Source: Promethearchaeota archaeon (lineage in GTDB: Archaea; Asgardarchaeota; Lokiarchaeia; Sigyniarchaeales; SOKP01). From it: 64,000 nt of DNA. The notes under the pieces were generated by a model that was not told the origin of the DNA, searched no databases, and worked only from the letters and a program-made list of their open reading frames with translations. The DNA is taken from contig JAHLWP010000001.1 of NCBI GenBank assembly GCA_019057865.1, forward strand, positions 32,001 through 96,000, given 5' to 3'. Shown one piece after another: positions 16,514-56,370 of this stretch; position 1 is the stretch's first letter, and every line of letters starts with the position of its first letter. The translations under genes and the position numbers were made by a program.

Positions 16514-16617
16514 CGCAGATGGAGGGAATCGAACCCCCGAGCGCTTTCGCGCACCGGCTCTCTATGTCAGCAAAAAAACTCTCGAGGCCGGCGTCTTACC
16601 AGCTAGGCTACATCTGC
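16514..16617 (-). tRNA. tRNA-Ser(CGA) with 21-nt intron at canonical position 37/38 (16560-16580)
   Basis: Acceptor GCAGATG/CATCTGC, anticodon stem CCGGC/GCCGG with loop CT-CGA-G|A, long variable arm, T-loop TTCGATT, discriminator G, no encoded CCA. Confidence 0.93.
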
Positions 16618-45886: not shown

Positions 45887-45955
45887 ATGTGTTAATGGTG
45901 CAACCATTTCTTCAACTGAGTTCTCATTTTTCTAACTCAGAATCATTAGACACAT
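45887..45955 (-). promoter_or_regulatory. SECIS element (eukaryote-like AUGA/GA core) in the 3' UTR of hdrA-vhuD
   Basis: ATGTGT-CTA-ATGA-TT-CTGAGTT-[AGAAAAATGAG]-AACTCAG-TT-GA-AGAA-ATGGT(TGC)ACCAT-TA-ACACAT, starting 8 nt after the vhuD TAG. Confidence 0.85.
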
Positions 45956-45963
45956 TTTTCATT

Positions 45964-46443
45964 CTATTCGGTTTTTTTCTTTTTTTGTCCATTTGAATCC
46001 TTATTTTTTTCTAATAATAAAGATTCCTTTATAGGGTTGCTGCCTAAATTCTCAATGATCTCTGAAATTCTAATCATTTCTTCTTGAAATATCTGACCCT
46101 CTGCAGAGCTGCAATGAAACATTACGATTCTATCTGGTGATAGTCCAGTAGTCTTTAAAATTTCTTTAGCATAATTTACATTTCTTTCTGCTATAAGATT
46201 TCCAGTCTCATAGTCACATTCTCCTTCATATCATCCAGCCACTATAACACCATCAGCACCCTTTCCAATCGCTCGCATCAATAAACTTGGAGTTACTCGA
46301 CCTGTGCAATTTATTCTTACCGGTCTTATTGTTGCAGGATATTGAGCTCGAATTGTCCCTGCCATGTCAGCCCCTCCATATCCTCATTTCCAACAGAGAA
46401 AAGCTAATATTTTTTTATCTCTACTTTCTGTTATTTTTATCAC
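45964..46443 (-). CDS. vhuD: Selenocysteine-containing MvhD/VhuD hydrogenase delta subunit (2 Sec)
   Basis: Not in the ORF track. Manual translation gives ...AFLCWK-U-GYGGADMAG...INCTGRV...GADGVIVAG-U-YEGECDY...; TGA at 46384-46386 and 46231-46233 falls on conserved Cys positions; TAG stop at 45964. Confidence 0.93.
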
Positions 46444-46447
46444 CTCT

Positions 46448-48430
46448 TTATATTTCCTCTAATATTGCATCAATTTGCTTTTCATATTGAGGTTCTCGAT
46501 AATATCTTAAAGTTATTGCTTCTGAAGGGCAATTAGCTAAACAAGATCCACAACCTCTGCATAATATCTCGTTTACTTCCGCTCCATCATCCATTAACTG
46601 TATTGCGTCATAAGGACAATTTAACTCACACAGGCCACACTTCGCGCATTTTTCTTTATCAACTGTAGCACGTATTAATCTTATTCTATAAATTTCTTTC
46701 CCCATTAATCTTGAAAGTGATGATGCCGCCGCTCTACCTTGAACAATTGACTCAGCTATAGATTTAGGGCCTTGAGATACTCCTGCAAGCACAATACCTG
46801 GAATTTTTGTATCTATAGGATTTAATCTTGAATGAAACTCTTTAAAAAATCCATCTTGGCTGGTTTCAAGTTTTAGGATCTTCTGAAGCTTATCGTTACC
46901 TTTTGTTGGAACCATTGATGCTGATAAAACTACTAAATCATATTCGAGTTCTTTTATTCCTAATGATTCTCTAAGAGTATTTTGGATAATGACCTTAATA
47001 TTATGAGTATCAGGATCTTCTTTTAACTTAGAAATATTAGTTCTGATGTATCGAATACCTTCCTTTCGTGATGCAGTAAAATATTCTTCATAACCTTTAC
47101 CAGCAGCTCTTATATCCATATAAGCTACATCAATCTGAGTATCAGGATAATGTTGTTTAATTAATTTCGAGTTCTTAATTGCTATCATACAACAAACACC
47201 TGAACTACAATATGTATTTTTGTTTAAATCTCTTGAACCTACACATTGAATAAATAAAACATTTTTCGGTATTTTACCGTCAGAGGGTCTTACAAGATGC
47301 CCAAGTGTGGGTCCATTAGGAGCTAAAATTCTTTCTAGTTTCAATTCTGTAATTACATTTGGATATATATTATATCCAAGGTAGCCTGTTTCGGGTTCGT
47401 ATTCATCCCACCCTGTTGCTACAAGAACCGATCCTACTTTTAAAGTAACAAGTTCATCTTGTTGATCAAAATTAATTGCATCTAATTCACAGGCTTTCTG
47501 GCATAATCCACATTTAATACATTGGTTCATATCTATTTGAGCTATAGAAGGGACTGCTTGAGCAAAGGAAACATAGATAGCCTTTCTTGGGTTTAATCCT
47601 TCATTGAATTCATCATAACCATAAACAGGGCAAGGTTCGATACATGCTCCACACCCATTACATTCGTTTGTAACATATCGTGCTTTTTTCCTGATTGTTA
47701 CATCAAAGTTTCCCACAAATCCAGATATATCCTCCATTTCACTATAAGTATAAAGATTCAACCCAGGAGTTCTTGTCGCTTGAAGCATGACTGGTCCTAG
47801 AATTCATATACTACAATCATCAGTAGGAAATGTTCGGTCTAACAATGCCATTTTTCCACCTATAGTGGGACTCTTCTCAACTAGATGGACTTCAAATCCT
47901 TGTTCTGCTAAGTCAATAGCAGCAGTTAAACCAGCGACACCCCCACCAATTATTAATGCTTTTTGAGTTATATCTACTTCTTTAATTAAAATTTTCTCTA
48001 AAACAGCAGCTCTAGCGACTCCGGATCTAATGGCATCTTCTGCTACTTTTTGGGCACCAGGTTTATCATCTCGATGTACAAAACTAGCATGTTCTCTAAT
48101 ATTTACAAATTCTAAGTATGAAGGATCTAATCCCATCGACTCTAAAACGCTTTGAAACACAGGTTCATGAGTTATAGGGGTGCATGATGCTACAATTAAT
48201 CTATTTGCATTACTTTCATTCATATTTTCTTTTATAAATTCAGCTCCAGGCTCTGTACAGAGACTAATATAATCAGAAGCTCCAACTACATTAGGTAATG
48301 CTTTTGAAAATTCAACTAGTGCTCTGCAATCAATTATTTCAGCAATATTAATACCTCACTGACAGACAGCAACATAAATTTTCGGTATTTCTCCGATATC
48401 TTTAATTTCTTCGTGTTTGGTTTCTACCAT
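46448..48430 (-). CDS. hdrA: Selenocysteine-containing heterodisulfide reductase subunit A (2 Sec, 660 aa)
   Basis: Track fragments 47804-48223 and 46448-47788 are one frame. TGA at 48356-48358 (VAVCQ-U-GINIA) and 47804-47806 (TFPTDDCSI-U-ILGP) replace conserved Cys; GGGVAG FAD motif and ferredoxin motifs present. Confidence 0.95.
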
Positions 48431-48613
48431 TGCATATCATTCCATTATGTAATTTTTGTTTGTCCTCCAAAAATTCGTATTTTTTTTAATTATAAATCTA
48501 AATATTATATTTTAATTAAATAAATTTAAATCAAAAATGTTTGTATATAAAAATAAGCTTAAAAATTATTTTAAAAATAAGCTTAAAACTTTAAAATTAA
48601 TTTTATTGGAAAA

Positions 48614-49042
48614 ATGATGCTAATGATATTCCAAGATGAACCTCCCTTAATTGAGGAATATATACCACTCATTGCGATAGCAGTATTATTAGTTGCTGAT
48701 ATTTTTATTCTAAAGATTGGTTTAATGATGACTAAAGCACAATCAAAACGAAATTTAAAATGGGTTGCTATAAGTTTTTTAATTCAATTTGGAGTCATTT
48801 TCTTTATTAGTTTACCAACATTTTTAATGGGTATGACTGGAGCATACGATGAAGGTCCAGATCCAGGTATTATTATCCCAATTATATTACTCTCATTATT
48901 TATAGACATAAATATAATTAATGTATTACATAAAATTGGCATTAAACGATCAGTAATTGTTGCATTCTTAATTTTGGTTCCAATTATTTTAGCAATGGTC
49001 ATTTTAGGGGATTTCATGTCACCTGCACCAAATGGTGCTTAA
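48614..49042 (+). CDS. Small multi-pass membrane protein
   Basis: Four hydrophobic segments. Confidence 0.75.
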   Translation: MMLMIFQDEPPLIEEYIPLIAIAVLLVADIFILKIGLMMTKAQSKRNLKWVAISFLIQFGVIFFISLPTFLMGMTGAYDEGPDPGIIIPIILLSLFIDINIINVLHKIGIKRSVIVAFLILVPIILAMVILGDFMSPAPNGA

Positions 49043-49048
49043 AGATTT

Positions 49049-49972
49049 CTAAAATCCAATTTCTTTATTGATAGTCTTGTTCATATAAACAATTTCATCT
49101 CTAGCAGCTTTACTAAATCTTTCTGGAGCACATTTTCTATCTTTATTATATGCAAACATCACTCCACGAGAAGAATTAACAATCCCTCCTAAACCATTTT
49201 TTTTAAATCCATATTTTATATCGATTGCCTGAGCACCCTGTGCTCCATAGCCAGGGATTAATATAAAAGAATTTTCCACTATTTCTCTAATTCTTTTTAG
49301 CTCATTTGGATAAGTAGCACCAACTACAACCCCTAAATTATGAAAATCAGAACGCTTTCTTTCAAGGTTTAATCCCCAATTATATACTAACCTTGCCATT
49401 TTGATATAATTTCTTTCTAATTTAATAGATTCAATTTCAATTTCTGTCTGTGAATTTGGAATGTTTTCAATCTTAGCAGAAAACAAATCTTGAAAATTAT
49501 GACTGCTTGGATTTGAAGTTTTTACAATAATAAATAGTCCTTTTTCTTTATAATCCAAAAATGGTTTAACTCCATCGATTCCAAAATATGCATTTATAGT
49601 ACATGCATCTGCTTTATAGATATTGTATGTAGCATCTGCATAAGCTTTTGAGGTTGTTCCAATATCATTACGTTTTGAATCTAATATTACTAATAAATCA
49701 TTTTTATGAGCAAATTTAATAGTTTCCTTTAAAGCATTTAAAGCTTCATATTTTTCATAAAAAGCAATCTGTGGTTTAATTACTGGAATTAAATCATAAG
49801 TATTTTCAATTAATTCTTTATTAAATTCTAAAATAATTTTATCAGGGTGTTTATATTCTTCAATTAAATATTTGGGTATTTCTCCTTCGTTATCCATTCT
49901 GGGATCGAGTCCCATAGAAACAACGCTTCTCTTTTCCTTTATTAATTGAATTAATTGTTCAATAAAATGCAT
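49049..49972 (-). CDS. pyrF: Orotidine-5'-phosphate decarboxylase
   Basis: GLDP, KPQIAFY, DSKRNDIGTT, VKTSNP, VVGAT, PGYGAQG and NSSR motifs. Confidence 0.95.
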   Translation of the reverse strand: MHFIEQLIQLIKEKRSVVSMGLDPRMDNEGEIPKYLIEEYKHPDKIILEFNKELIENTYDLIPVIKPQIAFYEKYEALNALKETIKFAHKNDLLVILDSKRNDIGTTSKAYADATYNIYKADACTINAYFGIDGVKPFLDYKEKGLFIIVKTSNPSSHNFQDLFSAKIENIPNSQTEIEIESIKLERNYIKMARLVYNWGLNLERKRSDFHNLGVVVGATYPNELKRIREIVENSFILIPGYGAQGAQAIDIKYGFKKNGLGGIVNSSRGVMFAYNKDRKCAPERFSKAARDEIVYMNKTINKEIGF

Positions 49973-50356
49973 AATGAGAATAGATTCATGAGTATTTTAA
50001 ATAATCTTGGCAATGCATTTAATAATTATTGATAAATGAATGACAAAATTTTAGAAATTTTTGACAATGATATTAAATTATTCAATCTCGTAAAATTTTT
50101 CGTCTAAATATAAATAGGAAGTGGTTTCTAAAAAAATTAGCGATGGGAGTTGACTTTTTTAATAATTATTGGGAATGAATCTAATAATATTTAGGAATCA
50201 TTTGATTTTTTCAGTTATACAGTCTTTTATTTCCTCCACGATCCAACTGTATCGAGCAGGATTCGAAATGCCCTTAATAAGTTTTTCGACTTTTTCTTTT
50301 GGATAATTGATTAATAAATAATCATATAAAATCTGTAATCCTTCTCTCACTTTATT

Positions 50357-51082
50357 TCACAATATTTTCATTTCAGTTTTATTTTTGTATTCTTGATTCA
50401 AATTTTTAATAAATTCTTGCAACTCATTATTGAACATGGTTCTTTTTTCAGGAGCAATACAATTTATAAAGGAAAGAATGTGAATGATTCCTGATACTTC
50501 TTTATCGCAAGTATGACCAAAGCGAGGGGCTCTACATTCATGACATACTGTTAAAGCATAATCCTGAAAATTTTTTTTACTTAACTTTTTATTTAACATG
50601 AAATTTGCTCCCACAGCTGAGGAGCCGCATGGGGATGATCTTAAAACCGTTACATTTAAAATTTTCGTCTCCTTGTCTAAATTTAATTCAAAAAGAGGTT
50701 TTCCAAAATATTTTGCGAAAGTATCAATCTCTGGAATTCCTGTATTCGGTTCTAAAGAACACATGGTTCGAGGACCAACTACTTTAGGATTAATATTTCT
50801 AGCTTGCTTTAATAAGCCAAGACCAGGTGTTATGCCTAAGATTAATGGTTTTTGGAGTCCAGCTAGTTCCAAAATGATATCTGGATGCCGAACATATGAT
50901 AAATAAAGCTCGCACTCCGGTATATCAAGATAAATATCATCATCTAACATAACTGTTGGAGGGATATCTGGAACTAATATCCATTCTACATCAAAATGCT
51001 TTTTAGTGTTTTCAAAAGCTCTTTCACCATATTTTCCATCAGATACAATACCAATCTTAATTTTGCTTTTATCCTTTTCCAT
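50357..51082 (-). CDS. DUF166-like Cys-rich protein
   Basis: GKYGERA, HPD, MCSL, FGKP, VLRSSPCG and CHECRA motifs. Confidence 0.7.
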   Translation of the reverse strand: MEKDKSKIKIGIVSDGKYGERAFENTKKHFDVEWILVPDIPPTVMLDDDIYLDIPECELYLSYVRHPDIILELAGLQKPLILGITPGLGLLKQARNINPKVVGPRTMCSLEPNTGIPEIDTFAKYFGKPLFELNLDKETKILNVTVLRSSPCGSSAVGANFMLNKKLSKKNFQDYALTVCHECRAPRFGHTCDKEVSGIIHILSFINCIAPEKRTMFNNELQEFIKNLNQEYKNKTEMKIL

Positions 51083-51122
51083 TTAAATACTTTATGATAT
51101 TTTAATTTTTATCAATTCATTA

Positions 51123-51542
51123 TTATTTACTTTGAAATAATTCATCCACTTTTTTCGCTATTTCTTCAGCAATTATTTCAGCAAGTTTCATACCATCCTT
51201 TCCTAAATCTTCGCGGGATTTTGGCTTTAGTTCTGGATGTGTTCCGGCAATCTCTTGAATATATATGGTTGCTGCAGGCTTACCACTATATTTATCAACA
51301 GCAATTTTAGCACATTCCTCTTCACATCCTTCTATTGTTATCGTTGGATTATTTTTTGCAAAGTCCCTCTCCTGTTGCCCACCATGCCTTTCTAACCCAC
51401 CTGCCATAAATAAGGGTTGACATAAAATAATCGTATTATTTGGTCGTAATTTTTCAACAACTATTCTCGCAGCTGCGCGACTTAAAGTGCCTCCAACTAA
51501 TTTTTCACCACTACAAGCAATAATTCCAACCTTTTTTTTCAT
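51123..51542 (-). CDS. DGC-domain (putative zinc-binding) protein
   Basis: IIACSG...C...IEGCEEECA. Confidence 0.85.
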   Translation of the reverse strand: MKKKVGIIACSGEKLVGGTLSRAAARIVVEKLRPNNTIILCQPLFMAGGLERHGGQQERDFAKNNPTITIEGCEEECAKIAVDKYSGKPAATIYIQEIAGTHPELKPKSREDLGKDGMKLAEIIAEEIAKKVDELFQSK

Positions 51543-51965
51543 TTAATCGTCCCTCTCCATGTTTTTTTCTAATAATTTATCAACTTCAGCAGCCACCTTT
51601 TCTGCTAATTTTATCGACAATTGCTTAGTATTTTCTCCAACCGGAATAATTGAAGGTTCTGGTTTTAAATCCCTATTTTCCTTTACAATATCAGTAGTCA
51701 AAAAATGAGCATCCACTTTTCCAACAGCTTCCATTAAATCATTATAAGAACATTTTAGGGGGCATCCATCTAAGGCGATTACTTTATTTTCCTTTATTGC
51801 CTCAATGACTTCCTTTTTACCTTTTACTATTAAAGGTAAGCATTCTAAATTGGTCTTATCCTTCGCTAATTCGTTAACGACTATATATGCTGTTTTTCTG
51901 CCAATGCTTCCAAAAACTTTTCCAATTCCGCTACACGGAATAATATAAACTTTCTTTTCACTCAT
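51543..51965 (-). CDS. DGC-domain protein
   Basis: IIPCSG...CLP...LDGCPLKC. Confidence 0.85.
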   Translation of the reverse strand: MSEKKVYIIPCSGIGKVFGSIGRKTAYIVVNELAKDKTNLECLPLIVKGKKEVIEAIKENKVIALDGCPLKCSYNDLMEAVGKVDAHFLTTDIVKENRDLKPEPSIIPVGENTKQLSIKLAEKVAAEVDKLLEKNMERDD

Positions 51966-51966
51966 C

Positions 51967-52851
51967 TTAATCCTCTTTTTCTTTATCTAATAATTCCTTT
52001 TCCTTTAATATTTTTTCTTTCATATATTCAAAATATTCTGGACCATCCATAAGTAATTCTTTATCCTCCTCAAAATCTTTTAACTCTAATTCTGCAAACC
52101 ATCCTTGTTGATAACAATCTTGATTCATCCATTCAGGATGTTCTTCTAACGCTTTATTGACAGCAATAATTTTTCCTGAACCAGGAGATATTAATTGCAA
52201 TACTGTTTTAACAGATTCAAAAGAACCAACATCATCGAATTGTTCAATTTCTTGACCAATTTCGGGTAATTCTACAAACATTATATCACTTGACTGATTT
52301 TGCAGATAATCTGTAATACCAATTAGAGCTCTATCACCATCTGGTTTGATCCAACAATCATTTTCATTGAAGAAATATCCCTCTTTAGGAACTTGAAAAT
52401 AGAATTTATCCACAGTAATATCAAAAAAATCCATCCTTTCTGTCTTAGCTACGATAACAATATCTTCTTTTTCGCTTACTTTTAGTTCCTCTAAAAACCC
52501 CTTAGCAATCATTTCAGCTAATTTCTTGGCATTTTCACTCAATTTTAAACTCGTCCCAGGTTTTATTTTTAACTTTTTTAACATATCGGGGATAAATATT
52601 CGTTTGTAAATTTTTTGATTTCGCTCTTCGATTAATTTTGTAGCACATCTTGTCATACAACCATCTATTACAATAGTTCTAGATTCTCTTAAATTAGATT
52701 CATATTTCTCATCGCCCGTATTCAGCAAAACTGGACAAATTAAATTCAAAGCAGGTTTTTTTTCAATTAGATTAAGTGCTACTACTCTCGCAATTACCCC
52801 TAGTGATTTATCTAGACCGTTGCAAGGTAAAACACATAACTGTTTATCCAT
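51967..52851 (-). CDS. DGC domain fused to glycine-cleavage H (lipoyl-carrier) domain
   Basis: N-terminal LPCNG...CP...IDGCMTRCA; C-terminal IGITDYLQ...FVELP..G......FESVKT...ISP.SG...VN..L...P...N.D.Y..GW with the lipoyl Lys in ESVK. Confidence 0.88.
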   Translation of the reverse strand: MDKQLCVLPCNGLDKSLGVIARVVALNLIEKKPALNLICPVLLNTGDEKYESNLRESRTIVIDGCMTRCATKLIEERNQKIYKRIFIPDMLKKLKIKPGTSLKLSENAKKLAEMIAKGFLEELKVSEKEDIVIVAKTERMDFFDITVDKFYFQVPKEGYFFNENDCWIKPDGDRALIGITDYLQNQSSDIMFVELPEIGQEIEQFDDVGSFESVKTVLQLISPGSGKIIAVNKALEEHPEWMNQDCYQQGWFAELELKDFEEDKELLMDGPEYFEYMKEKILKEKELLDKEKED

Positions 52852-52863
52852 TATGCATCACAT

Positions 52864-53175
52864 CTACTTATTTTCACTTCTAAGCTTCTTTATTAGATTA
52901 GTCGTTTCCCGCTTATCTGGGAATGATAAAGCATCAGGAGCGCAAGTTTTAGCGCACGCACGACAAAATACTACACAATTATATGGATTTTTAACAATTA
53001 ATTTTTTTTTCTCGTCATTAGTACGGGCATAAACATTATGTGGACAAAATTTATCACATTCCATGCAAAAATCACATTTCTCGTAATTAATTGTTGGCCA
53101 CCATGGGATTTGCTTTCTTGGAATTCCCATAAATGTTTCTTTTTCAGCATCATAACTCTTACTCATTTTTAACAT
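52864..53175 (-). CDS. 2x[4Fe-4S] ferredoxin-like protein
   Basis: CDFCMECDKFCP and CVVFCRACAKTC. Confidence 0.9.
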   Translation of the reverse strand: MLKMSKSYDAEKETFMGIPRKQIPWWPTINYEKCDFCMECDKFCPHNVYARTNDEKKKLIVKNPYNCVVFCRACAKTCAPDALSFPDKRETTNLIKKLRSENK

Positions 53176-53545
53176 CCTCCTCTAATTTTTCCAAAGTCTT
53201 TTCAACTAAATTAACAGCTTCATCTGTAGTCATTTCGCGAATATCCAAGGGAATTAAATCTGTTTTTTCATCTAATCCTGCTTTTTTAAAAGCGTCTCTA
53301 AATAACTTATATTGCATGTTTGGAGCACATCCAGCCACCATATATTTTCGACCAGTGCGTAAATAATCATCTAAAAATCTATCGCCATCTTCTTCACACA
53401 ATTGAGGATGAATAAATCCATATTCTACAGGAAGTTCAATTCTTACACGATTAATAAAATCCCATATATCCATTGTGGCAAATCCAGGGCATTTTCCAGT
53501 ACAAACACACATAATGAATCCAATTTCTTTTTTTGTATTGTTCAA
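53159..53545 (-). CDS. Stand-alone HdrA N-terminal-like domain protein
   Basis: FIMCVC...QLC...VAGCAP....LFRDA...AGLD...LDIRE parallels the N-terminus of HdrA at 48430 (VCQU...SLC...VASCTP...VNIRE). Confidence 0.75.
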   Translation of the reverse strand: MNNTKKEIGFIMCVCTGKCPGFATMDIWDFINRVRIELPVEYGFIHPQLCEEDGDRFLDDYLRTGRKYMVAGCAPNMQYKLFRDAFKKAGLDEKTDLIPLDIREMTTDEAVNLVEKTLEKLEEDVKNE

Positions 53546-53665
53546 TTTATTAGCACCACCTATTAATCTCGAATTTGTTATCTTAATTTTAATAAAATTT
53601 AATTATTATTAACACAAGATTTAAATATAAAATTCGTTTATAAGTATATGTATTATTACGCATAA

Positions 53666-54001
53666 ATGCATAAAACAGATATGAAACTTGAAAATTTAAG
53701 ATTGGATTTATTAAGAGCTCTTTCCGATGAAACTAGATTAAAACTTTTAGAGTTTCTAAGGCATGGAAATGAGATTTGTGTTTGCGACATTGAAAAAGTG
53801 TTTGATAAAACTCAATCTACATTATCTAGACATTTAAAAACTCTTACTGAAGCAGACATCCTTGAAAGTAGAAGGGAAGGGAATAAAAAATTGTTTAAAG
53901 TAAAAGATACCCAAATTTTCAAGTTATTGGCAATAGTAGATAATTTAATTAAAAGAAATGAAAAATTTAAAAAAATTGTAGAACTCCAGCAAAAAATATA
54001 A
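53666..54001 (+). CDS. arsR: ArsR/SmtB transcriptional regulator
   Basis: ALSDETRL, EICVCDI and QSTLSRHL motifs. Confidence 0.88.
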   Translation: MHKTDMKLENLRLDLLRALSDETRLKLLEFLRHGNEICVCDIEKVFDKTQSTLSRHLKTLTEADILESRREGNKKLFKVKDTQIFKLLAIVDNLIKRNEKFKKIVELQQKI

Positions 54002-54016
54002 AATGAAGGTGTTAAA

Positions 54017-54310
54017 ATGGTTCAACAAGAGAGTGAACTTCAAAAAGAAAATAAACTTAAAGTAGAAATTTATGTGCCTTTAAATGTATGCGCTTGCCAA
54101 TGGGAAAGATTTATGAATCTCGTTTTTCAGGTAATTACACCTTATAATAAGTATATAACATTCGATACAAAGAATTTAGATTCTGAAGAAGCAAGAAAAT
54201 TGAATTTGCATGGTAATAGTGTAGTTATTGATGGAAATGAAATCGTTACGACATCATTTGCTCTGAAGAAAAAGCTACCAGAAATATTGAAGTCAAAAGG
54301 TTTGATTTAA
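54017..54310 (+). CDS. Small thioredoxin-fold-like protein with CxC
   Basis: KVEIYVP..VCAC...EEARKL.....VVIDG. Confidence 0.6.
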   Translation: MVQQESELQKENKLKVEIYVPLNVCACQWERFMNLVFQVITPYNKYITFDTKNLDSEEARKLNLHGNSVVIDGNEIVTTSFALKKKLPEILKSKGLI

Positions 54311-54311
54311 T

Positions 54312-54788
54312 TTGAGTAAAAAAGATATCCACGCAGAAAACATTGTCTTAATACCATGTTCAGGTTCAGAATATCATGGTGAATTAGCACGACAGGTAGC
54401 AATACGATTGGCGGAGAAAAGTAAAATAGCTTCTATTAGCTCATTGACATGCTCCACTATTTTTCTTAAAAATGTATTATTAGAAAAAGAACAATTAGTT
54501 GAAATTACCAAAAATCATCTCAAACATTCCTTTATTATTATTATTAACGGATGTAACACAGCCTGTGTAAGTGTAATTTATAAACATCTTGATATTGTAC
54601 CAGATTTGATTATTTCCGTCCAAGCTATCATCCCTAAGCAACGTATGAATTTAAATGATCTAAATACTTTTAAGAATCTACCTAAATTAAGCGAAATTAA
54701 AGAGGAGGATATAAGAAAGGTACTTGAGTATATTCTTCAAGAAATACAGAAACAAGGGCTTAATATTGATAAATTCGATGAAAATTAA
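54312..54788 (+). CDS. DGC-domain protein
   Basis: LIPCSG...GELARQ...C...INGCNTAC. Confidence 0.8.
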   Translation: MSKKDIHAENIVLIPCSGSEYHGELARQVAIRLAEKSKIASISSLTCSTIFLKNVLLEKEQLVEITKNHLKHSFIIIINGCNTACVSVIYKHLDIVPDLIISVQAIIPKQRMNLNDLNTFKNLPKLSEIKEEDIRKVLEYILQEIQKQGLNIDKFDEN

Positions 54789-54869
54789 TATTTGATTTTA
54801 AAAATTTTTATCTTAACAAGAAGTAATTATAACGTAATTAATAAAAAACTAAAAACTGCTATAAGAAAT

Positions 54870-55208
54870 TTACTTTCGTCGAAAATATTTGGAAATATAA
54901 TTTACAAAATTACTCCCAAAATCATAATCTTTAAAATCTGTAGTTGAGCAAGTTGATTTAGATTCTTTATCAAAAAATATCCTACTGAAACCTAGACGAT
55001 CATAATGTGCTCTTCGTTCTGGGTCACATAAGGTTTCATATGCTTCATGAATCTCTATAAACTTTTCTTTTGCTTTTAGATCTTTTTTATTCTTATCAGG
55101 ATGATATTTTTTTGCCAACCGTCGATATGCTAATTTGATCTGGATTTTGGAAGCATCTCGGCCTAAACCAAGTAACTCATAATAATCTCGGTTTTTGAAT
55201 GAATTCAT
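54870..55208 (-). CDS. J-domain-only protein
   Basis: DYYELLG...[12 protein letters not shown]...AYETL.DP..R..YD; no DnaJ zinc finger or C-terminal domain. Confidence 0.85.
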
Positions 55209-55332
55209 TTTAAAATAGAATTTATTTGATGATTCTAGACAAGTAAAATATACTAATTCTAAATTTAAACCTTGTTTTAAAATTATTTATATTATTAAAT
55301 GCTAGGAATTATAGATTTTAATAAAAATTTTT

Positions 55333-56244
55333 TCATAAACCCGGATCATATGTGTTAAAGGGATTTCCATAGAGTATAAGACTGATTTTTTTCTTATATT
55401 TATCACATTTACTTATATCTGGTATGTTATTTAGGGTTAAATCAAGAGATTTCAAATTTACAAAATTATCTAAATCATTTATCTCAGAAATTAAATTTTT
55501 TGATAAATTAATAGTTTCTACTGATTGAAGCTGAATTAAACCTTTGAATTCTTTAATCTTATTGTGCATAAGGTTTAGGTTTTTTAATTTTTTTTGATTA
55601 GTTAAACCTTCTATTTTCTCAGTTTTATTAAATCCTAAATTTATTGAATTTAACTCAATAAGATCTTCAAGATTTTTAATTTTTGTTATTTTGTTATGAG
55701 ATAGGTTTAAATTCCGCAATTTTAATAAACCATTTAGCCCATTAATTTCAGAGATATCATTAAAGCTTAGATTTAAATCCTCTAAATGTTTTAGCAAATC
55801 TAATCCTTCAATATTTTTAATGTTCTTTATTTTGTAATTTGTAAGTGCTAACTTTTTTATTTTTCCCTCCTGTATTATAACAGTTTTATTCTCTTTATTT
55901 AGATTTGGAAAAATTATTATTAAATTATTTAAAACTTTATAATTCAAGAATCTTTCAATCAAATCATCAAGATTATGATTATAAAATATAAACTTTGCTA
56001 GTTTTGATTGATATCTTTTATACTTACTCATATAATGCTTGATTTCATTGATTAAAAAAAGATTAAGGAATGTTTCATTATAATCTTTTATTATTTCTAT
56101 ATATTTTATAACACAGTTTAGAGAATTATCAATTTGTAATGCCCATTTAATCGGGTGTAGTGCTTTTAATGACTTATACCTCTTATTTTCATCATTACTA
56201 TTCTCGATTATATAGATTAAAGATTTATTTTGAATTTCTTTCAT
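55333..56244 (-). CDS. LRR protein (SDS22-like repeats) with shortened HEAT module
   Basis: LxxLNLSxNxIxxIxxL repeats and KALHPIKWAL. Confidence 0.8.
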   Translation of the reverse strand: MKEIQNKSLIYIIENSNDENKRYKSLKALHPIKWALQIDNSLNCVIKYIEIIKDYNETFLNLFLINEIKHYMSKYKRYQSKLAKFIFYNHNLDDLIERFLNYKVLNNLIIIFPNLNKENKTVIIQEGKIKKLALTNYKIKNIKNIEGLDLLKHLEDLNLSFNDISEINGLNGLLKLRNLNLSHNKITKIKNLEDLIELNSINLGFNKTEKIEGLTNQKKLKNLNLMHNKIKEFKGLIQLQSVETINLSKNLISEINDLDNFVNLKSLDLTLNNIPDISKCDKYKKKISLILYGNPFNTYDPGL

Positions 56245-56288
56245 CTAATCATAATAATTTATGGATTTTAAAAATTGTAAAATATTTT

Positions 56289-56370
56289 GGAATATATAGG
56301 ACGCAATCCTATTGTCAATCTTTTACTAGTATTTTTTTAAAAGATTTCATTCAATTTTTTTACATATTCC
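56289..56370 (-). promoter_or_regulatory. Second SECIS element
   Basis: GGAATAT...ATGA-AATCTTTTA-[AAAAAATACTAG]-TAAAAGATT-GA-CA-ATAGGAT(TGC)GTCCTAT-ATATTCC; same architecture as 45887-45955. Confidence 0.75.

Follow-up and report, generated by a model that had tools for sequence, protein, structure and literature searches.

Do the selenocysteine insertion sequence (SECIS) elements of Asgard archaea carry a third helical arm and, if they do, what might read it? The question is raised by a 64,000-nt stretch of DNA from a Promethearchaeota archaeon (JAHLWP010000001.1, positions 32,001 to 96,000; referred to below as the window, in whose positions the two elements are located), in which two SECIS-like elements on the minus strand each have a small additional hairpin on the 3' side. 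In a first-pass annotation, this pair was read as a three-way-junction subtype of SECIS with a U-[UGC]-R triloop, its side hairpin a possible binding site for an elongation factor, and was put forward as a sensitive search pattern for further selenoproteins. We found that the element is a three-way junction composed of a lower helix (P1), a kink-turn arm, and the side hairpin (P3), as borne out by its architecture, conservation, and covariation, and that this junction element is strictly tied to genes containing UGA codons. For the function of P3, we favor recognition by a trans-acting factor, a reading suggested by the pattern of conserved bases.

The side hairpin within and beyond the family

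The two hairpin strings, AUGGU-UGC-ACCAU (positions 45895 to 45907) and AUAGGAU-UGC-GUCCUAU (positions 56296 to 56312), each occurred once in the window, both on the minus strand, and neither was matched in 100 shuffles. The strings, together with the lower helix, AUGA, upper helix, A-rich loop, and 3' UGA of the first-pass annotation, were seen in the two elements as described. These core features, and genes upstream in which UGA codons are in frame, mark both as genuine SECIS elements of the Loki type, as had been proposed. AUGA lies directly 5' of the main stem in each; in a plain MAFFT alignment of 66 elements that was fitted to no structure and lines up on the loop motif (alignment A3), 65 read AUGA and 1 reads GUGA. 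The upper helix is 93% paired across the 66 elements, and elements 1 and 2 lie within the published lokiSECIS limits (stem of about 9 bp, range 7 to 15; apical loop of about 11 nt, range 8 to 20). Their apical loops, AGAAAAAUGAG and AAAAAAUACUAG, follow the rule of adenines first and a final G (usually AG); three A columns and the final loop G are invariant in 11 elements of this genome. On the 3' side of the stem, both read GA (GA in 55 and AA in 11 of the 66). The minimum free energy (MFE) and centroid folds of both elements were three-way junctions, in agreement with the earlier proposal (-14.4 kcal/mol and z of -1.8 for element 1; -16.5 kcal/mol and z of -3.5 for element 2).

Both elements sit just downstream of genes with in-frame selenocysteine (Sec) UGA codons; element 1 starts 9 nt past the stop codon (TAG) of vhuD, and the gene upstream of element 2 reaches, with its final codons and TAA stop, into the 5' strand of the lower helix. 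No Rfam 15 family, SECIS included, matched either element at the gathering score or at E values up to 10. The plain internal loop of eukaryotic SECIS elements is missing, the 3' side being made up of a C-stem strand and a covarying hairpin, and the methanogen-type asymmetric GAA_A bulge with consecutive G-C pairs above it is in neither element.

None of the 15 SECIS loci in this genome (13 of type I and 2 of type II, the latter at selD) lacked P3. In a crude pattern scan, the whole genome (4.26 Mb, 29% G+C) yielded a dozen SECIS elements of the Loki type. All of them had a small G+C-rich hairpin a few bases past GA, and all either lay 2 to 34 nt beyond a gene with an in-frame UGA or overlapped its end. 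The preceding genes were four HdrA-VhuD pairs, a Prx-like gene, a VhuU-like gene, two UGA-UGA paralogues, a duplicated four-UGA mini-gene, and genes for short membrane peptides. The two type-II selD elements were missed by both covariance models described below (R1 and R2), yet they have P3 hairpins, CCGU-UGCGA-ACGG and CCAC-GCGCGAU-GUGG, closed by CGAUG/CAUCG and UGAUG/CAUCA, respectively. The label "subtype" was dropped, the three-way junction not being a subtype.

To guard against circularity, a covariance model was built from the core only (AUGA, upper helix, apical loop, and GA), with no flank information (R1). This model recovered the known type-I elements plus one more, on contig C66, and had matches in all 24 sampled genomes of the genus. 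The flanks of 67 R1 hits, from nine genomes belonging to six genera of the family, were examined for P3, defined as a hairpin with no fewer than 4 bp, two or more of them G-C pairs, and a start within 6 nt of GA. Such a hairpin followed 65 of the 67 hits, compared with 6.7% of 20,000 random genomic GA/AA sites, 12% of shuffled flanks, and 1 of the 67 5' flanks of the hits themselves, which confirms the side hairpin as real. GC occurred in the P3 loop of 54 of the 67 hits versus 0.7 to 1.4% in the controls. The loop is 3 to 7 nt long in the family and up to 10 nt elsewhere, and its columns in A3 read U (77%), G (95%), C (73%, with U in 23%), and a purine (76%). Loop conservation as claimed at first was therefore retained, but the strict U-[UGC]-R triloop proved to be only a special case of an N-G-C-R motif in loops of 3 to 10 nt.

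Three further descriptions of P3 were tried and rejected. A GNRA tetraloop fits many out-of-family loops (GCAA and GCGA) but not those of the two window elements, nor the register that is stable in most of the family. Mimicry of an anticodon loop (U33-UGC-R37) is at odds with the length of most loops, which is below 7 nt. Base-pairing between the P3 loop and either the apical loop or the 5' junction strand was dropped because the search for covarying partners came up empty.

Outside the family, R1 gave no match in any of 16 genomes at E values up to 0.01, and sampling was therefore anchored on proteins. Sec-containing VhuD (two in-frame TGA codons) was found in all 134 sampled family genomes and also elsewhere in the phylum, in further families, orders, and classes. 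The anchored sample comprised the DNA downstream of 28 Sec-VhuD and 4 SelD genes, from 19 genomes in eight families besides that of the window. P3 followed 25 of the Sec-VhuD genes and 3 of the SelD genes, the latter from three further classes; Asgard SECIS elements lacking the hairpin, anticipated earlier as the adverse outcome, did not turn up. At the 25 Sec-VhuD loci, a hairpin starts 1 to 5 nt past the GA of a SECIS-like core, its 5' strand rich in C and its 3' strand rich in G, and the lower-helix return strand comes next. Four loci showed no clear element in the crude scan and were not counted as lacking P3 (L037 and L056, where the gene continues or is partial; L096, on a short contig; and L093, the selD of G168); none is clearly without P3. 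The out-of-family loops are larger and end in N-G-C-R (uccUGCGAgga, cccuCAAAGCAAgggg, ccccCUAAAUGCGAgggg, and cccuuAAACGCAaaggg), with GCAA or GCGA as the loop end in many lineages.

Variant cores were also observed behind out-of-family Sec-VhuD genes. UUGA replaces AUGA at L045 (G168), AGGA...GGA is found at L041 (G165) and L042 (G163), UA stands in place of the 3' GA at L097 (G159), and no AUGA/GA is recognizable at L053 (G168); P3 and P1 are kept at all five loci.

A covariance model of the whole junction (R2) gave full-length matches of 58 to 83 bits in all 34 sampled family genomes, with 3 to 13 matches per genome. The score of the C66 element, on which the model had not been trained, rose from 27.9 bits (R1) to 41.4 bits (R2). 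Overall, the junction adds 13 to 30 bits to within-family covariance searches, an aid in finding small or unannotated selenoprotein genes. R2 found elements behind Sec-VhuD in several other families when the search was limited to those loci, whereas whole-genome scans across the phylum (E values up to 1e-4) returned only the family itself and one f2 genome and did not reach other classes. This silence says nothing about absence, because the anchored loci show P3 and R2 is tuned to the family. As a search pattern, the junction thus earned the word "sensitive" within the family but not for whole-genome scans of other classes.

Some individual loci deserve mention. The C66 element (G000 C66:81241-81325, plus strand) is a full three-way-junction SECIS; no gene with an in-frame UGA that it could serve was found upstream on the same strand within 1.8 kb, and a very small selenoprotein gene that escaped annotation may be the one it serves. 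A weak SECIS-like match (G000 C55:19329-19426, minus strand; R1, 28.2 bits; R2, 27.6 bits) combines an AUGA core and an 8-bp helix with a 3' part that is atypical and longer. A Cys-rich gene of 73 codons, four of them in-frame UGA, is followed by a SECIS whose P3 loop is the unusual GGCG; gene and SECIS occur as two near-identical copies on two contigs (G000 C61:2072-2155 and C81:3773-3856, both on the minus strand).

Kink-turn and junction architecture

In A3, the three-base stretch directly before N-AUGA is paired with the one that follows GA. The inner pair (columns 17 and 58) is formed in all 66 elements (GC 52, AU 7, UA 3, CG 2, and UG 2), the middle pair (columns 16 and 59) in 57 with 24 double changes, and the outer pair in 38. 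Because this pairing covaries, the stretch from GA to the hairpin is no "linker" but the 3' strand of a kink-turn C-stem, an assignment that is new in this analysis. The bulge of the kink-turn is always 3 nt long and on the 5' strand, with no length change in the 66 elements (AAU 46, GAU 17, UAU 2, and AGU 1). In AUGA, the G and A do not vary; the core reads G/A-A on the 3' side, and the position next to the tandem G.A is U.U in 18 and A-U in 19 of the 66. By this pattern of bases, the core is assigned as a canonical kink-turn with a 3-nt bulge and a C-stem of 2 to 3 bp.

From 5' to 3', the architecture consists of P1; the C-stem of 2 to 3 bp; the bulge R-A-U; tandem G.A/A.G pairs between the GA of AUGA and the 3' GA/AA; an upper (NC) helix of 8 to 9 bp, capped by an A-rich loop of 11 nt whose last base is G; the C-stem return strand; P3, which is G+C rich, 4 to 7 bp long, and has the loop N-G-C-R; and the P1 return strand. 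P3 joins the C-stem and P1 through 0 to 3 unpaired bases. In a gapless MAFFT subset of 21 elements (alignment A7), pairing in P3 reaches 85.7%, and both partners vary in each of the five base pairs (AU 12/CG 8, GC 8/CG 6/UA 4, and GC 12/CG 7 among them). For the whole structure, 82% of the cells in A7 are paired compared with 40 to 53% with slid partners, and none of 500 shuffles reached 82%. A lack of covariation or of loop conservation, the other adverse outcome foreseen, was thus not what we observed. Registers were weaker in two other alignments (P3 and P1 68% paired in A5, which was model fitted; P3 61% paired in A6, a gapless MAFFT subset), because the loop and the linker or junction vary in length; both values exceeded all controls. 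The gapless subsets told more than A5.

Box C/D kink-turns, which are bound by L7Ae, combine a C-stem with a bulge of 3 nt that ends in R-U and with sheared G.A pairs in tandem, frequently next to U.U; box C reads RUGAUGA and box D CUGA. We take the Asgard core to have this standard kink-turn layout of the box C/D kind: its 5' strand reads R-A-U-G-A-U and its 3' strand U-G-A, and it shares the U.U next to G.A in the 18 elements noted above. However, the Asgard element is no guide RNA, and its C-stem has only 2 to 3 bp and opens into a three-way junction. Kink-turns combined with three-way junctions are known from the k-junction of thiamine pyrophosphate riboswitches and from the U4 5' stem-loop in the U4/U6 junction. 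In the k-junction, the third helix arises at the kink, whereas a short C-stem separates kink and junction in the Asgard element, which is known from sequence alone and has no sequence relationship with these RNAs.

A eukaryotic SECIS element consists of helix I, an internal loop, and helix II, with no known third arm. The Asgard element resembles this type (RF00031 and related families) in its AUGA...GA core, tandem G.A pairs, apical adenines, position in the 3' untranslated region (UTR), and type I and II apical forms. The eukaryotic upper helix is longer, however, and the base after GA in the Asgard element pairs with a C-stem base upstream of AUGA (66 of 66) and not, as in the fourth pair of the eukaryotic non-Watson-Crick quartet, with the U of AUGA. 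The methanogen SECIS is described in the text of PMC11881835 as a single hairpin with a GAA_A bulge and G-C clamps. It shares with the Asgard element the location in the 3' UTR of archaeal selenoprotein genes (vhuD and hdrA) and a kink-turn-like internal motif, but it has no side arm and no AUGA/GA core (except in vhuD).

The element itself is the published lokiSECIS, with which it has in common AUGA, a 9-bp stem, an 11-nt loop running from adenines to G, GA or AA, a location just after Sec genes, and one copy per HdrA-VhuD pair. The text of Mariotti et al. (2016; PMC4989117) lists AUGA, a 9-bp stem, an 11-nt loop, GA, and "a few additional conserved features," of which the terminal loop G is the only one it names. 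That of Huang et al. (2024; PMC11227280) describes Asgard "eSECIS-like" elements of types I and II by a core, an upper stem, and a loop at the apex, a model repeated in the text of a review of May 2026 (PMC13188914). Below the core, the texts of PMC4989117 and PMC11227280 place an "internal loop" and a "lower stem" without highly conserved bases. P3, the G-C-R loop, the covarying C-stem, and the three-way junction are not in the text of these three papers. Our literature search found no paper joining SECIS, Asgard, and three-way junction, and in the literature searched the terms lokiSECIS and eSECIS-like were confined to the same three papers.

Proposed role of the hairpin

The explanation that we put forward as a whole, in which P3 belongs to the Asgard element as a conserved, integral third arm and is recognized in trans, seems slightly better than an even bet. 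An L7Ae-family protein (L7Ae or L30e) would bind the kink-turn, the junction would hold P3 beside the bound protein, and the nearly invariant G-C-R of the P3 loop would be read sequence specifically by a Sec factor, either archaeal EFSec/SelB or an adaptor. Such reading would supply the specificity that SBP2 gives in eukaryotes and would set SECIS kink-turns apart from the many other L7Ae sites of the cell. The model for this mechanism is U4, where a second protein reads the composite of an L7Ae-family protein and RNA. According to the texts of PMC4989117 and PMC11227280, Asgard genomes have no SBP2, and what binds the SECIS there is not known; according to that of PMC11881835, a lokiarchaeal SECIS is nonfunctional in Methanococcus maripaludis. 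Both reports fit the proposed mechanism, the failure in Methanococcus being in keeping with lineage-specific recognition. The third arm and the kink-turn may bear on that failure, depending on whether the construct used in PMC11881835 included P3.

Several points weigh against this explanation. P3 has only 3 bp in 2 of the 67 elements, a few loops are off-motif (GGCG, AUGUC, and CGGUC), and in several elements the third C-stem pair and the outer P3 pair compete for one base. The covariation counts were drawn from related genomes, and events are therefore overcounted. We infer the role of P3 from conservation alone, and the conserved loop could equally make an RNA-RNA or intramolecular contact. 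As regards the structure, the "few additional conserved features" in the text of PMC4989117 may include part of the P3 arm.

The main competing explanation, which we judge unlikely but worth weighing closely, is that P3 is purely architectural, stacking in the junction, steadying the short C-stem and the kink, and perhaps docking its loop intramolecularly, with no reader in trans. A C-stem of 2 to 3 bp is unstable on its own, P3 is the G+C-rich part of an RNA of about 29% G+C and lies within three unpaired bases of the C-stem and P1, and the GCAA and GCGA loop ends of many lineages are formally GNRA, a class of loop that often makes tertiary contacts. However, a buttress needs no loop G conserved at 95%, which argues against this explanation without excluding it. 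In addition, the window loops (UGCAC and UGCGU) are not GNRA, and no column covaries with the loop except the loop's own neighbor.

Pairing of the P3 loop with rRNA or tRNA-Sec, by which the SECIS would be tethered to the ribosome, is improbable. The conserved core of the loop is exposed, but its 3 to 4 bases are too few to specify a partner, the C-to-U variants (23%) would weaken a G-C pair, and no candidate partner turned up, rRNA and tRNA-Sec not having been searched. Less probable still is a terminator-like 3'-end or stability hairpin unrelated to Sec decoding. Such a hairpin would be small and G+C rich, like P3, and U-rich sequence often follows P3 (consensus GG-UUU); a terminator role is nevertheless unlikely because P3 is nested inside P1, whose downstream 3' strand covaries with its 5' strand. 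The spacing from P3 to the kink-turn is fixed, the loop motif is kept although superfluous for a terminator, and comparable hairpins occur at only 6.7% of random genomic sites. Sharing of the hairpin by the two elements through chance, for which one might cite their different stem sequences and the z of only -1.8 for element 1, is already refuted by the presence of P3 in 65 of 67 hits versus the 7 to 12% expected, by its recurrence in eight other families, and by the compensatory changes in the stems.

Recognition of P3 by a trans-acting factor can be extended into an evolutionary proposal, which we offer tentatively and regard as doubtful. The kink-turn and P3 would form the complete recognition platform of SBP2-independent recoding, with an L7Ae-family protein on the kink-turn and EFSec or an adaptor on G-C-R; eukaryotic SECIS elements would have lost P3 and the C-stem once SBP2 took over specificity, and the Asgard form would be ancestral. 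If so, the Asgard form would be a more elaborate ancestor and not a "short eukaryotic SECIS." Asgard SECIS elements are cited as the link between archaeal and eukaryotic Sec decoding, and the third arm and the canonical kink-turn revise how this link is modeled structurally. In the loop and helix of P3 and in the C-stem, they also provide concrete mutants and baits toward the missing SECIS-binding factor.

Genes served by the elements and feature coordinates

Element 1 serves a vhuD/mvhD gene whose product matches the Pfam family FlpD (PF02662; E value of 3e-41; FlpD/MvhD) and has Sec-containing orthologues across the phylum (Table 1). No SECIS of its own was found for hdrA, and the two genes share element 1; an HdrA-VhuD pair with one common SECIS is described for Lokiarchaeota in the text of PMC4989117. 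The open frame of hdrA, read with TGA as Sec (U), starts M-E-U (positions 48437 to 48439, minus strand, close to the frame's 5' end), with a further UGA three codons in; either the true start is the next Met downstream or this is an extra Sec site.

The gene served by element 2 lies downstream of an ACR3-type (acr3) arsenite transporter gene and reads ...DSGC-UGA-UGA followed by 37 more sense codons. Its paralogue (contig C57; L007:2480-3094, plus strand) is 49% identical, and the alignment is unbroken across UGA-UGA and the extension, on which ground we take the UGAs to be decoded and element 2 to be a predicted working signal. No Pfam match was found for this small protein family, in which the tandem UGA-UGA, located after ...SGC or ...HAD and before a conserved C-terminal extension, is probably Sec-Sec. 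P3 stems much like that of element 2 (AUAGGA...UCCUAU) recur in SECIS elements of other family genomes, which suggests orthologues of the UGA-UGA gene.

Table 1. Positions in the window of the two SECIS elements, their parts, and the genes they serve
Feature	Positions	Strand	Basis or remarks
SECIS element 1, whole three-way junction	45887..45955	-	Sequence; MFE fold; R1, 39.9 bits; R2, 44.4 bits, full length
Element 1, P1 lower helix, 5' strand AUGUGU	45950..45955	-	Pairs with ACACAU (45887-45892)
Element 1, P1 lower helix, 3' strand ACACAU	45887..45892	-	Sequence; MFE fold
Element 1, kink-turn 5' side: C-stem UCU (45950-45948), bulge A-A-U, G-A of AUGA (45946-45943)	45943..45950	-	UCU pairs with AGA (45909-45911)
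Element 1, upper (NC) helix UUCUGAGUU/AACUCAGUU with 11-nt apical loop AGAAAAAUGAG (45933-45923)	45914..45942	-	Sequence; fold; 7 bp Watson-Crick plus two U.U; UUGA on the 3' side after the loop
Element 1, 3' core G-A (45913-45912) and C-stem 3' strand AGA (45911-45909)	45909..45913	-	Sequence
Element 1, P3 side hairpin AAUGGU-UGC-ACCAUU	45894..45908	-	Sequence; MFE fold; family P3 covariation
SECIS element 2, whole three-way junction	56289..56370	-	Sequence; MFE fold; R1, 44.1 bits; R2, 56.5 bits; lower helix GGAAUAU/AUAUUCC
Element 2, kink-turn 5' side: C-stem UUG (56354-56352), bulge A-A-U, G-A of AUGA (56350-56347)	56347..56354	-	UUG pairs with CAA (56312-56314)
Element 2, upper helix AAUCUUUUA/UAAAAGAUU with 12-nt loop AAAAAAUACUAG	56317..56346	-	Sequence; MFE fold; 9 bp, preceded by AUGA; UUGA follows
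Element 2, P3 side hairpin AUAGGAU-UGC-GUCCUAU, closing pair U.G	56296..56312	-	Sequence; MFE fold
vhuD/mvhD, two in-frame UGA (Sec) codons, 159 codons, served by element 1	45964..46443	-	Open reading frame under TGA=U
hdrA, in-frame UGA codons, directly upstream of vhuD, shares element 1	46448..48445	-	Open reading frame under TGA=U
Small gene served by element 2; tandem UGA-UGA at 56479-56474, then a conserved continuation of 37 codons	56363..56896	-	Translation

Elsewhere in the window, positions 16514 to 16617 (minus strand) gave an Rfam tRNA call (104 nt, 43.5 bits), ARAGORN having reported no tRNA in the whole window; this is probably an intron-containing archaeal tRNA.

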